DNA of 64,000 bases. Origin: Gemmatimonadaceae bacterium. GTDB taxonomy: Bacteria; Gemmatimonadota; Gemmatimonadetes; Gemmatimonadales; Gemmatimonadaceae. The stretch is taken from positions 207 through 64,206 of the forward strand of contig DATMHK010000048.1 of the NCBI GenBank assembly GCA_035554995.1. Direction: 5' to 3'. Of the stretch, positions 21,046 through 24,065 are shown piece by piece. The notes under the pieces were generated by a model that saw only the letters and a program-made list of their open reading frames with translations, had not been told where the DNA came from and made no database searches. A program made the translations under genes and the position numbers. Numbering within the stretch: the first letter of the stretch is position 1; every line of letters begins with the position of its first letter.

Positions 21046-21888
21046 ATGCCACTGCTTCCGCTTCGTGGGTTGCCCGACCGTTCCACCCGCGACATCGCCA
21101 CGGAATGGATCGAGAAGATCGGCGCCACACTCGCCGATCCGAATTGCGACCGCGCCCTGCTCTGCCGGCGCTCTCTGACTGAGATTGCCTTCCCCGAGTA
21201 CGCGACGAACTGGGAGACCGCGGTCGAGGATCGCGCGCTGCCGGCGGCGACCCGCCTCGCCCTCGCCTCGACCGATCCGCGCAACATCACCCTGGAGCCC
21301 GAGTACTACAGCGACTGCGACGACGCCCGCTTTCAGCGCGTGAAGCCGCTTCTCTGGCTCTGGTACTCGTTCGACCGTACGGTGCTCGGCGGGCAGAATG
21401 TGTGGCTGGGCGTGGAGCTTCGCCGCGTGCTGGCGCGGCACATCTTCAAGCGCTGTGGGGAGAACTTCAAGGCGTTCCAACACGTCGAGTTCTCGTTCGG
21501 CTACAACCTGGAGGTTGGCGACAACGTCGTCGTCCATCGCCATGTGCTCCTCGACGACCGCGGCGGCATCGTGCTCGGCAACCGCGTCTCGATCAGCGAT
21601 TACGCGAACATTTATAGCCATACCCATTCCATCGTCGAGCAAAAGGACGTGACTAACGCCACCACGGTCATCGAGGACGGCGTTCGCATCACGTACCACG
21701 CCACGGTGCTCGCCGGCGTGCACGTTCACGAACAGGGAATGGTCGGCGCGATGGCGTTGGCGACGAAGGACGTTCGTCCGTATCACGTCTACGTCGGCAT
21801 TCCGGCGAAGAGCGTCCGCGTGAAGCCGAACGCGCCGCAGGCCTCAGAAATCTTGCGGACGAGCCGAGACCGCCAGGGCGGCGATTAG
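21046..21888 (+). CDS. Hexapeptide-repeat (left-handed beta-helix) acyl/acetyltransferase
   Basis: The C-terminal half carries imperfect hexapeptide repeats (LEVGDNVVVHRHVLLDDRGGIVLGNRVSISDYANIY...VIEDGVRITYHATVLAGVHV). The N-terminal extension of about 100 aa is unassigned. Confidence 0.8.
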   Translation: MPLLPLRGLPDRSTRDIATEWIEKIGATLADPNCDRALLCRRSLTEIAFPEYATNWETAVEDRALPAATRLALASTDPRNITLEPEYYSDCDDARFQRVKPLLWLWYSFDRTVLGGQNVWLGVELRRVLARHIFKRCGENFKAFQHVEFSFGYNLEVGDNVVVHRHVLLDDRGGIVLGNRVSISDYANIYSHTHSIVEQKDVTNATTVIEDGVRITYHATVLAGVHVHEQGMVGAMALATKDVRPYHVYVGIPAKSVRVKPNAPQASEILRTSRDRQGGD

Positions 21889-24065
21889 AGAACGCGCATG
21901 ACGTCGTCCACCGGACCCGCGTCGCCGGTGGACAGCAACTCCACAATCTCGCGCAGCGACGCCCGCTCACCGGGAAAGGCAAACCGCGTCAGCGCGTCGT
22001 CGACGCCGAGCCACTCGTATCGTTGATGCTCGTCGCCGATCGTGACGGCCGCGCCGCCGTCCACATCTCCGTCAATGAATGCGGCGAAGACGACGGCGAG
22101 TTGCAGCGTGTGCGTGCGCCGGACATAAAAGGGCGAGACCCGTACGATGTACAACCGGTCCGGAGCGAGCCCCGCCTCCTCGCGCAGCTCGCGAATCGCG
22201 GCCTGCTCCGGGGTTTCCCCGGGTTCGATGTGACCGTGCACCGGCTCCCACGCCGTCGGACAACGCGTGTCGCGGCTACGCTGGAGCGCCAGCACGCGCC
22301 AGCCTTCCGTCAATGGACGTACGACGAAAACGTCGACGGTGCCGACCTCGATGCTCGTCATCGGCTGTAACCTAGAACGGAGCGCGGCGGCGCGCGCGAG
22401 CACCGCTTCGAGATCATCGCGAATGCGCTGCACCGGATCGCGATCGATCGCGTCCACCGATGGAACGAAGCGGCGCGGCGGCTCCGGCTCGGCGACGATC
22501 CTCGGCTCGTCGTCCGGCGATGCCACGCGCCGAACTTCGTCAAGCGTGGTGCGGCCGGCCACGGCGTGCGCGACGCCCGACTGCCAGAGCGACCGCATGC
22601 CGTCCCGGCGCGCCGCCTCCGCGATGCGTTCCGTCGATTCGCCCGACGCAACTTGCCGCTCGAATTCCGGCGAGCCGCTGAGCACCTCGACGATCGCGAG
22701 CCGGCCATGGAATCCACTGCCGGAACAGACGGGACATGTCGCGTTCCTGCCGTTGCACTCGGCGCAGGTGCGTCGGACAAGCCGCTGCGCCAGCACGCCT
22801 TTCACTGCGGTCGCGATCTTGTAGTTGGCGACGCCGATGTCGATGAGCCGAGTGACGGCGCTCGCCGCGTCGTTGGTGTGCAGCGTGGACAGCACGAGAT
22901 GCCCGGTGAGCGACGCCTGGATCGCGATCTCGGCGGTCTCGCGGTCGCGGATCTCGCCGATGAGGACGACGTCGGGGTCCTGCCGCATGATCGAACGGAG
23001 CGCCGCGGCGAAGGTCAGACCTGCCTTCTCGTTCACCTGCACCTGAACGATTCCCGGGAGCCGATACTCGATCGGGTCTTCTACGGTAACGATATTGACG
23101 CCCCGTTCTTTGATCTGCCGGAGCGCCGCGTAGAGCGTGGTCGTCTTTCCTGATCCGGTTGGGCCGGTGACGAGGATCAGTCCTTCTCGCGCCTCGAGCA
23201 GCTGTTCGACCCGCGCCAGCTCATCGGCGTGAAAGCCCATGCCGTCGAGCGTGACGATCGCGCCGCGTCCGTCGAGCACGCGCACCACGACCTTCTCGCC
23301 GTGCGACGCCGGAAGTGTCGAGACGCGCAGATCGACGGCGACGCCGTTCACGGCGATGCGCGCGCGGCCGTCCTGCGGGCGAAGCCGATCGGCGATGTCG
23401 AGGCCGGAGAGAATCTTGATGCGCGAGACGAGCGCGGGCCCGACGCTGCGAGGCAGACGACGCACGACGGCCAAGACGCCGTCCACGCGATGCCGCACGG
23501 CGATGGCCTGCTCTTCCGCTTCGATGTGGATGTCGCTGGCGCGAGACGCGATGCCGGCCGCGAGGAGCTCGTCCACCAGCGCGCTGATCGACGCACCCGC
23601 GTCATCGTTCGGAGCGAACGGAGCCCCCTCCACGTCGCGCCCGAGATGCTGGACCTCGAGCACCTGACCAGGATCGTCGCTCGTCGACTCGGGGCGATAG
23701 AGCTCGTCGATTCGCCGGGCGATCTCGTCGCCGTTGGCGATCGCGAGGCGCACCTGCCGGCCAGTGGCGAACGCCAACGTGCGCTCGCAGTCGACGTCGA
23801 GCGGGTCGGCCGTCGCGATGAGGATCTCGTGCTCCGTCGCCGACAATGGCACCACGTGAAATCGTCGCGCCCAGCGTTCGGGAACGATCGACAGGGCGTG
23901 CGCGCTGGCGCGACTCAGATCGGCGACCGGGAGTCTGAATCGACGTGCCAGAGAGTTGACGTCCACCGGCTGCGGCGCCACCAATGAATTGCGAGTCACG
24001 CCGCACGCTACCACCACCGCCCGCTGGCCGCGTGACCCTTGGATTGCCCTCCGGCGCAAATTCAA
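21885..24065 (-). CDS. GspE/PilB-family secretion ATPase fused to a C-terminal Nudix hydrolase domain
   Basis: Single 726-aa ORF. It has a T2SSE_N-like N-terminal domain, Walker A GPTGSGKTT, LIGEIRDRETA, STLHTNDA and a Cys cluster CAECN...CPVCSGSGF. The last ~158 aa carry the Nudix box GHIEPGETPEQAAIRELREEAGL (22167-22235). The track's start is a TTG, so the true start is uncertain. Confidence 0.85.
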   Translation of the reverse strand: MNLRRRAIQGSRGQRAVVVACGVTRNSLVAPQPVDVNSLARRFRLPVADLSRASAHALSIVPERWARRFHVVPLSATEHEILIATADPLDVDCERTLAFATGRQVRLAIANGDEIARRIDELYRPESTSDDPGQVLEVQHLGRDVEGAPFAPNDDAGASISALVDELLAAGIASRASDIHIEAEEQAIAVRHRVDGVLAVVRRLPRSVGPALVSRIKILSGLDIADRLRPQDGRARIAVNGVAVDLRVSTLPASHGEKVVVRVLDGRGAIVTLDGMGFHADELARVEQLLEAREGLILVTGPTGSGKTTTLYAALRQIKERGVNIVTVEDPIEYRLPGIVQVQVNEKAGLTFAAALRSIMRQDPDVVLIGEIRDRETAEIAIQASLTGHLVLSTLHTNDAASAVTRLIDIGVANYKIATAVKGVLAQRLVRRTCAECNGRNATCPVCSGSGFHGRLAIVEVLSGSPEFERQVASGESTERIAEAARRDGMRSLWQSGVAHAVAGRTTLDEVRRVASPDDEPRIVAEPEPPRRFVPSVDAIDRDPVQRIRDDLEAVLARAAALRSRLQPMTSIEVGTVDVFVVRPLTEGWRVLALQRSRDTRCPTAWEPVHGHIEPGETPEQAAIRELREEAGLAPDRLYIVRVSPFYVRRTHTLQLAVVFAAFIDGDVDGGAAVTIGDEHQRYEWLGVDDALTRFAFPGERASLREIVELLSTGDAGPVDDVMRVL

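Follow-up and report, generated by a model that had tools for sequence, protein, structure and literature searches.

PilB/GspE motors are controlled by cyclic di-GMP (c-di-GMP), by PilZ and FimX partner proteins and by response regulators. To our knowledge, no dedicated nucleotide-pyrophosphohydrolase partner of such a motor has been described, no described PilB carries a C-terminal Nudix or receiver (REC) domain, and no case of a PilB/GspE–REC fusion has been described. The present analysis concerns a stretch of 64,000 nucleotides (nt) from a soil-dwelling Gemmatimonadaceae bacterium (contig DATMHK010000048.1), called ‘the window’ at its full length, in which one gene encodes a PilB/GspE-type ATPase joined in frame to a C-terminal Nudix hydrolase domain. 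It is nearly certain that this fusion is real and derived from an adjacent partner gene. The overall explanation, to which a probability of about 0.55 is given, is a bifunctional motor ATPase and Nudix protein that arose by capture of the partner gene and that would provide nucleotide-linked motor control. Literature searches on Nudix with PilB or type IV pili (T4P), on Nudix with GspE and on diadenosine tetraphosphate (Ap4A) with the T4P ATPase found no such pairing, in agreement with an earlier model-made reading of the letters (the sequence-only reading), to which no ATPase–Nudix coupling was known.

PilB and GspE are the described systems closest to the motor part. Among solved structures, the best sequence match is Geobacter PilB (354 bits, residues 23–439), followed by Myxococcus PilB, Thermus PilF and Vibrio GspE/EpsE (311–335 bits). 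With PilB (Geobacter metallireducens 5tsg/5zfr, Myxococcus xanthus 3jc8 and Thermus PilF; 354–335 bits over residues 23–439), the window protein shares the layout of T2SSE_N, N2 and C-terminal ATPase domains, the Walker A and B motifs, the Asp and His boxes and a Cys cluster; it differs in the shortened N-terminus and contracted Cys cluster of its clade, in its C-terminal Nudix domain and in having no pilC, pilM-Q or pilin genes nearby. Likeness to GspE/EpsE (Vibrio cholerae 1p9r, 4ksr) lies in the highest NCBIfam score and an ATPase part of similar length, but the window ATPase stays under the equivalog cut-off and is Nudix-extended, and the window has no gspF, gspL, gspD or pseudopilin genes. 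MshE and other MshEN ATPases are also motors of the PilB/GspE family, with an added domain that couples their activity to a nucleotide signal; however, MshE reads c-di-GMP by an N-terminal MshEN motif, whereas the fusion appends a C-terminal hydrolase and not a receptor. In Synechocystis, PATAN-REC regulators bind PilB1 (bioRxiv 10.1101/2021.06.11.447907), a receiver input to the pilus extension motor that recalls the REC-bearing ATPases found in sister lineages of the window protein. There the regulator is a separate protein, the only form in which response-regulator control of PilB was found in the literature, whereas the receiver is covalent in the sister lineages and the window protein has a Nudix domain and no receiver. 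On the Nudix side, the nearest systems are the NUDT2-type Ap4A hydrolases (human 3u53/4ijx, Caenorhabditis elegans 1ktg, Chlamydia CT771 4mpo; best sequence E 1.7e-11, Foldseek E 5e-12, template modelling (TM) score 0.71), which have in common with the window domain an intact Nudix box, a Tyr after the box and an EHQxYxWL segment. Identity to them is ~25%, the window family has its own C-terminal tail GDAGPVEDVLRV, and NUDT2-type enzymes are free-standing, with no motor ATPase.

The fused gene and its distribution

The open reading frame (ORF) of the fusion is continuous, with neither a stop nor a frame change inside, so that the uninterrupted 726-codon ORF of the sequence-only reading stands. 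The Pfam matches to T2SSE_N, T2SSE and NUDIX all exceed gathering cut-offs, and the short motifs (Walker A, Walker B, His box, Cys cluster and Nudix box) were located by regular expressions. Residue numbers 43–726 in the following list are in the 726-amino acid (aa) numbering, counted from TTG.

21885..24065, minus strand: ATPase–Nudix fusion ORF (ORF list and Pfam), 726 codons from TTG 24065, stop codon at 21885-21887
24015..24017, minus strand: candidate true start codon GTG, with a 710-aa product that is database protein P0001
23685..23939, minus strand: T2SSE_N/MshEN-like domain (PF05157), residues 43–127, Pfam E 6.9e-17
22527..23594, minus strand: PilB/GspE-family ATPase core T2SSE (PF00437), residues 158–513, Pfam E 1.1e-121, spanning 365 of 370 model positions
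23142-23165, minus strand: Walker A GPTGSGKT, residue 301
22944-22979, minus strand: Walker B DPDVVLIGEIRD, residue 363
22878-22907, minus strand: His box TGHLVLSTLH, residue 387
22725-22766, minus strand: Cys cluster CAEC-x6-CPVC, residues 434–447, a shortened tetracysteine version
22362..22505, minus strand: linker of ~48 residues (about 521–568), holding a conserved RDDL(E/D)xxxAR helix
21888..22361, minus strand: Nudix hydrolase domain, residues 569–726, with the family-specific C-terminal tail GDAGPVDDVMRV; PF00293 NUDIX match at residues 579–695, E 6.6e-19
22167-22235, minus strand: Nudix box GHIEPGETPEQAAIRELREEAGL, residues 611–633
22359..22361, minus strand: internal ATG (Met569), the N-terminus of the Nudix part

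The ATPase motifs and the T2SSE_N domain read from the letters were recovered by Pfam and regular expressions, as was the full Nudix domain with intact box beginning at its own Met; two details are amended, namely the tetracysteine cluster, present in its shortened version, and the start. Translation probably begins at GTG 24017, giving 710 aa and not the 726 counted from TTG, because the identical database protein P0001 has 710 aa; 70 aligned homologues also begin at about this position. No Pfam match to the receiver domain PF00072 was obtained in the window protein.

The Nudix part has its own Met and two-gene relatives exist, which could suggest that loss of a stop codon, or a frameshift, has merged two genes in this single assembly. 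Such an artefact is effectively refuted, and the notion of a unique event or sequencing error, allowed for in the sequence-only reading, gives way to a family-wide fusion. Four contigs carry the exact 710-aa protein, and three of these come from as many different metagenome samples of the Joint Genome Institute (JGI). A search for the same architecture in relatives found at least 120 fused clusters: the best 120 protein clusters of a full-protein search (70–100% identity) all combine PF05157, PF00437 and PF00293, apart from one 618-aa fragment without PF05157; nearly all measure 660–725 aa, and their source names are Gemmatimonadaceae or Gemmatimonadales. The junction lies in one frame in 24 GTDB species-representative genomes, all of them Gemmatimonadaceae, Gemmatimonadales or Gemmatimonas metagenome-assembled genomes.

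A census at the DNA level covered 118 loci, in which the ATPase frame was followed from the end of the ATPase core, an end visible in 94. The frame reads through into the Nudix domain in 72 of these 94 loci and stops before it in 22; after removal of redundancy, 59 fused loci stand against 21 split ones. A Nudix sequence at least 67% identical to that of the window always belongs to a fused locus, and fused loci are in the majority down to a Nudix identity of 42% (locus L036). Divergent fused forms include P0132, and also P0147/P0391 at 751–752 aa and Nudix identities of 42–52%. Linker length ranges from 16 to 79 residues over the 59 non-redundant fused loci, always in frame, and is held at 45–48 codons in ten close relatives compared, both of which argue against a joining error. 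Database entries of 154 aa for a ‘standalone’ Nudix protein (>100 listed) were considered as split genes and set aside, several being fused genes cut by contig ends; in L034, L037 and L039, the Nudix frame is open to the contig edge.

Alignment of 70 fused proteins shows the Walker A and B motifs, the His box, the Cys residues and the Nudix-box residues G, E, R, E, E and E to be invariant or nearly so. Compared with the relative L007, the ATPase core has synonymous and nonsynonymous differences in a ratio of 147:26, the Nudix domain of 62:16 and the linker of 12:16. Because synonymous changes are in excess in both domains and not in the linker, both enzymes are judged to be under purifying selection, while the linker, fast-evolving, of roughly constant length and in frame, behaves as a flexible tether would. 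Taken at the level of sequence, the bifunctional protein is conserved across Gemmatimonadaceae, and both of its predicted enzymes have intact catalytic motifs.

Affinities of the motor and Nudix parts

The Walker A and B motifs and the His box, invariant in 70 homologues, place the motor part in the T2SSE superfamily, and the T2SSE_N domain together with the tetracysteine cluster marks it as PilB/GspE type as opposed to PilT. Within the cluster, C418, C421 and C428 are invariant in the 70 homologues and C431 is present in at least 90%. The top NCBIfam score is that of GspE (TIGR02533; 499.5 bits against a cut-off of 630.25, residues 61–514 aligned to positions 4–485 of the 486 in the model), and the PilB model (TIGR02538) gives 475.3 bits against 675.65, below equivalog level. 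Because both scores are under their cut-offs, the ATPase is assigned by sequence to the PilB/GspE family and to neither the GspE nor the PilB equivalog. The sequence-only reading had proposed a trial of c-di-GMP binding by the N-terminal domain, an idea that finds no support here: the MshEN motif RLGxx(L/V/I)(L/V/I)xxG(L/V/I)(L/V/I)xxxxLxxxLxxQ was sought, in strict and in relaxed form, in the first 200 residues and is absent there from the window protein and from the relatives L032, L035 and L120. The clade of the window protein is also without ~50 N-terminal residues that the REC-type relatives have.

The Nudix part belongs to its superfamily by the box GX5EX7REUXEEXGU, by the Pfam match and by the Nudix fold of an AlphaFold2 (AF2) model. 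Its best sequence matches in the Protein Data Bank (PDB) are human NUDT2 Ap4A hydrolase (E 1.7e-11, residues 37–143) and then the C. elegans Ap4A hydrolase; a match to Escherichia coli NudB covers the Nudix box only. For the isolated domain, the AF2 model has a predicted local distance difference test (pLDDT) score of 92.6 and a predicted TM score (pTM) of 0.89, and Foldseek matches it to 601 PDB entries at E ≤ 0.001; Nudix enzymes run through the first 50 of these, headed by the Ap4A hydrolases 4ijx, 3u53 and 1ktg (E ~5e-12 to 2e-11, TM ~0.7). In the alignment with NUDT2 (identity ~25%), the Tyr of PFYV faces the Tyr of LNYV, and EHQRYEWLG faces EHQAYRWLG. The aligned residue, Tyr87 in the human enzyme, stacks on adenine in NUDT2; the corresponding Tyr is invariant in the 70 fused proteins. 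The glutamates of REx2EE and the rest of the Nudix box are invariant in the same 70 proteins and in 52 Nudix sequences, and a C-terminal tail LLxxGDAGPVEDVLRV is common to the whole Nudix family, fused or not. By sequence and predicted fold, the domain therefore most resembles NUDT2-type Ap4A hydrolases, Ap4A itself being a candidate substrate only.

A role in anti-phage defence was also considered and is unlikely: PADLOC gave just a generic Nudix match (PDC-S07, 41 bits) and a P-loop match, and the gene stands in housekeeping synteny (Tig-ClpP-ClpX-Lon-EngB).

An ancestral gene pair and its fusion

In sister lineages, the syntenic locus holds two genes. Split loci in synteny with the window (L032, L033, L035, L082, L119 and L120) share the order FHA-GAF-cyclase, TrpE-like, DUF5686-like, ATPase, Nudix, acetyltransferase, small protein, EngB, Lon, ClpX, ClpP and Tig, the Nudix gene there being separate and 154–163 aa long. 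The spacing between ATPase and Nudix genes in split loci goes from a 4-nt overlap (L120) to ~500 nt. ATPase and Nudix are thus an ancestral adjacent gene pair in Gemmatimonadales, which bears out the supposition in the sequence-only reading that a formerly separate gene had lost the upstream stop.

The C-terminus of the split ATPases is of three types. In the first, the ATPase ends in a true receiver (Pfam PF00072; tail of ~175–190 residues); this ATPase–REC architecture is found in at least 120 clusters, named Gemmatimonadales. In the second, the tail is degenerate and receiver-like, measures 130–160 residues and has a final HGRVVLATVLALLRWR (eleven loci); in this group, a GGAGG Shine-Dalgarno sequence lies 5′ of the Nudix gene. 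In the third, found in six loci, only a short tail of 36–63 residues follows the ATPase.

L032:5648-7891, L035:5780-7987 and L120:10001-12262, and also L119 and L082: receiver-type ATPase orthologues
L033:6069-7958 and ten similar loci: ATPases with a degenerate receiver

A motif D(A/D)FxLxD(D/E) stands before the receiver in REC-type proteins, at the end of short tails and in many fused linkers (DAFRLRDDLD). It was found in 23 of 94 tails and is degenerate or not detectable in the window's own linker. The conserved linker helix, for which an origin as a remnant of receiver helix alpha-5 was considered and dropped, is perhaps homologous to this pre-receiver motif, a weak inference from sequence.

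The simplest reading of these sequences is an ancestor in which an ATPase–REC gene preceded a partner Nudix gene; the lineage of the window would then have lost the receiver and joined the two frames. Capture of the ancestral partner gene is taken as nearly certain because of the two genes at the syntenic locus of sister lineages. One 221-aa fragment (P0179), in which the C-terminal half of a receiver runs in frame into a Nudix domain, suggests that ATPase–REC–Nudix triple fusions also exist. This receiver history of the ancestral ATPase is an addition to what the sequence-only reading contained. The sequence family as such is not new, being visible in automatic annotations (that of JGI reads ‘GspE/PilB-like protein/8-oxo-dGTP pyrophosphatase’), while the partnership and the evolutionary series appear undescribed.

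The history of the receiver bears on another view of the Nudix part, namely that it is not an enzyme but a ligand-sensing module, comparable to the ADP-ribose-binding Nudix domain of NrtR, which has replaced the receiver as input to the motor. The Shewanella NrtR Nudix domain is Foldseek match 5 (TM 0.72), and the fused form is without the receiver that sister lineages carry at the same position. However, the full Nudix box, catalytic glutamates of REx2EE included, is invariant, and receiver-type ATPases also adjoin a Nudix gene, so that the Nudix part is no substitute for REC; a sensing module is considered quite improbable.

The junction itself has features that resemble a gene start. Codon 1 of the Nudix part is start-capable in 59 of 59 non-redundant fused loci (ATG in 44, GTG in 14 and TTG in 1). 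Upstream of the internal ATG of the window, at a distance of 7 nt, stands a copy of a TAnnTT motif:

22369..22374, minus strand: TAGGTT, spelled TCT-AGG-TTA

The codons used are rare in window genes (TTA 0.5% of Leu, AGG 2.4% of Arg and TCT 4.4% of Ser codons). The motif TAnnTT lies exactly at −13 in 39 of the 59 fused loci, including all but about five of the ATG loci, against a background of 5 occurrences in 83,671 positions of upstream coding sequence. Its T at −13 falls on the third position of eight different codons (for seven amino acids), third-position T being at 11% in the genome, and no other third position within 75 nt upstream is highly informative. In some split loci, TAGCTT occurs in the non-coding spacer; it stands at −12 in L119 and at a greater distance upstream in L076, L083 and L089. 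TAnnnT located 5–8 nt before a start is the geometry expected for leaderless mRNAs, and among 45 other window genes, three have this arrangement before their predicted ATG start, where ~0.3 would be expected by chance:

32331, 34383 (minus strand) and 61838 (minus strand): predicted starts preceded by TAnnnT (TATTTT, TACAGT, TACATT)

A survey of Shine-Dalgarno usage lists Gemmatimonadetes at 22, read here as the percentage of genes using such a sequence (PMC10783764). With low to moderate confidence, TAnnTT may be an internal −10-like element producing a leaderless Nudix mRNA, by which free Nudix would still be made.

Proposed function and genomic surroundings

The motor and the Nudix enzyme form a conserved partnership: their genes adjoin one another, overlap or are fused, and in many lineages a receiver is present as well. 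In the favoured explanation, the PilB/GspE-family hexameric ATPase, which occupies the N-terminal two-thirds of the protein and is of the kind that drives T4P and type II secretion, presumably works for a machine of pilus or secretion type whose genes lie elsewhere. Next to it, the Nudix part would hydrolyse an adenine nucleoside polyphosphate (Ap4A or a related dinucleoside polyphosphate, NpnN, or nucleoside triphosphate derivative) and so remove a ligand that competes with, or modulates, ATP binding, and motor activity would in this way be tied to the nucleotide or stress state of the cell. The receiver domain would add phosphorylation control in sister lineages, and free Nudix might also be made from a leaderless internal transcript of most fused genes. 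An Ap4A-type substrate is proposed because of the resemblance to NUDT2-type enzymes; that the substrate is such a nucleotide and that the enzyme also regulates the motor is, as a joint claim, tentative and on balance doubtful. The link between nucleotide turnover and ATPase activity suggested in the sequence-only reading is likewise hypothetical.

Several observations weigh against this explanation. The full-length AF2 model is poor (pLDDT 59.8, pTM 0.31) and gives no structural support for contact between ATPase and Nudix domain, and adjacent genes can fuse without mechanistic coupling. The retained internal start would be compatible with a Nudix enzyme acting independently. The promoter reading of TAnnTT draws on sequence conservation: a simple sigma-70 two-hexamer scan of 21700-24400 found no promoter, and no −35-like conservation was seen upstream of the junction. 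As to substrate, the NrtR Nudix domain, mycobacterial MutT1, Chlamydia CT771 and NudB (rank 29) score only slightly lower in Foldseek than the top matches, with small margins in TM (0.66–0.72 over Ap4A hydrolases, NrtR, MutT1 and NudB), and all NCBIfam Nudix equivalogs (NudB, MutT, RppH and others) are far below their cut-offs. Finally, no T4P or type II secretion system (T2SS) partner genes were found within ±8–10 kb in the eight relatives with called genes that were inspected.

A rival account is a neutral fusion of neighbours, in which a housekeeping Nudix enzyme (a MutT-type sanitiser of the nucleotide pool or a NudB-like dihydroneopterin-triphosphate pyrophosphatase for folate synthesis) is functionally unlinked to the ATPase. 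Such an account gains from the JGI labels on members (MutT, dihydroneopterin triphosphate diphosphatase or dATP pyrophosphohydrolase), from weak NudB and MutT matches, from a TrpE/PabB-like chorismate-binding gene two genes upstream and from the kept internal start and promoter-like motif, which suggest that free Nudix is still wanted. However, the pairing is kept across Gemmatimonadales in fused, 4-nt overlapping and spaced form while surrounding genes vary, and most loci still have the fused state, with Nudix identity falling as low as 42% (L036). In sequence and in fold, moreover, the closest matches are Ap4A hydrolases, not NudB or MutT, whose models give the isolated domain some 40 bits (NudB NF006961, 39.7 against 103; MutT NF008044, 39.8 against 148); TIGR00586, used as a further NudB/MutT equivalog test, gives 34.5 against 97.9. 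A neutral fusion is accordingly rated as unlikely.

In the survey of the window, genes at ~11.9–34 kb were classified by precomputed Pfam labels, and thirty further ORFs elsewhere were scanned against Pfam. The genes found are housekeeping genes, among them those for DnaK, HtrA, Tig, ClpP, ClpX, Lon, EngB, a TrpE-like protein, glycosyltransferases of the lipopolysaccharide core, GlmS, GlmM, PurD, Fpg, UbiA/D/X and IMPDH. Among the genes surveyed, which excluded ORFs of less than ~100 aa and a few gaps, there was no PilC/GspF platform protein, secretin, PilM/N/O or pilin, although a short prepilin gene could escape a survey of this kind; within this scope, the statement of the sequence-only reading that the window has no other T2SS or T4P genes stands. 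The partner machine of the ATPase may be encoded elsewhere in the genome.

The neighbours of the fusion and the other elements of interest in the window are the following.

24146..26344, minus strand: DUF5686-family protein gene, 732 aa, upstream neighbour (42 bits against a cut-off of 39.2)
21046..21888, plus strand: hexapeptide-repeat acetyltransferase gene, 280 aa, WcaF/EpsC-like (below cut-offs), convergent, downstream
24077-24130: 25-bp perfect inverted repeat GAATTGGGGTCAGACCCTATTTAGA-attc-TCTAAATAGGGTCTGACCCCAATTC, between the DUF5686-like and ATPase genes
34439-34482: second, slightly diverged copy of the inverted repeat, in a stretch without a predicted gene
27857-29398, plus strand: FHA-GAF-adenylate/guanylate cyclase gene, in synteny with the ATPase locus in most relatives
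39100-40479, minus strand: gene for a response regulator with an HD-GYP-type (HD_5) phosphodiesterase domain
7971-10757, minus strand: gene for a 928-aa protein with SdrD_B-like and NPCBM_assoc repeats
11260-12078, minus strand: gene for a 272-aa protein with a weak PapD_N (pilus chaperone) match, E 6.4e-5

The last two genes may represent a surface-fibre or adhesin locus, unrelated to T2SS or T4P. In 60 of 67 loci, the Nudix end faces a convergent acetyltransferase gene; in the window, the 3′ end of the latter overlaps that of the fusion gene by 4 nt (21885-21888), a tail-to-tail arrangement that recurs in relatives. A GDP-mannose hydrolase (WcaH-like), prompted by this WcaF-like neighbour, was considered for the Nudix part and rejected, no such enzyme being among the sequence or fold matches. 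The inverted repeat is a REP-like palindromic element or a terminator, and exact copies of its arm occur only in loci of the same organism (L001–L003).

The most conserved neighbour of the ATPase gene is the DUF5686-like gene, directly upstream on the same strand in 44 of the 47 loci whose upstream sequence reaches 2.5 kb or more. Judged by eye, the protein has an apparent N-terminal signal peptide; it has no PDB match by sequence at E ≤ 1, and literature searches on the family returned essentially nothing beyond a passing mention. L006 has no DUF5686 neighbour; in this locus, a different fusion, of Nudix and HAD hydrolase domains (8754-9857, minus strand), lies divergently upstream of the ATPase–Nudix fusion.

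The constancy of this neighbour raises the alternative that the ATPase works outside T4P and T2SS and forms, with the DUF5686 exported protein and the Nudix enzyme, a distinct and so far undescribed envelope module. The DUF5686-like gene is close by even in L036, the most divergent fused locus, where it lies on the other strand; pilus and secretion genes are absent from every context examined; and the ATPase scores under both NCBIfam cut-offs (GspE 499 against 630, PilB 475 against 676). Against such a module stand the T2SSE_N domain and zinc-type Cys cluster, as in bona fide PilB/GspE, and the match to Geobacter and Myxococcus PilB over residues 23–439. The gaps of 52–290 nt between DUF5686 and ATPase genes and the 25-bp perfect hairpin between them in the window argue against tight co-expression; L006, moreover, is without the neighbour. 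In addition, PilB genes located away from other pil genes are known in other bacteria. Type IV pilus genes are reported in Gemmatimonadota from most habitats (PMC10581226), and a distinct envelope module is considered rather improbable. Of comparable improbability is a more far-reaching combination, in which motor, Ap4A-type Nudix, receiver (in many lineages) and DUF5686 protein would make up an undescribed envelope machine or regulatory module of Gemmatimonadales whose ATPase is gated directly by a dinucleoside-polyphosphate alarmone, the internal leaderless promoter supplying both tethered and free hydrolase.

The Nudix partner of the motor is conserved throughout an entire order and occurs repeatedly as a covalent fusion, and fusion of this kind is strong genomic evidence for joint action. 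The partnership provides a handle on the way in which a molecular motor might respond to nucleoside-polyphosphate signals, Ap4A for example, and on the role of an unassigned Nudix family. Within a little-studied soil phylum without genetic models, a single gene displays a C-terminal series of receiver, degenerate receiver, short tail and fusion, and an internal promoter, possibly retained, would be relevant to how gene fusions evolve. Altogether, the fusion points to an undescribed nucleotide-based control of a pilus- or secretion-type motor.

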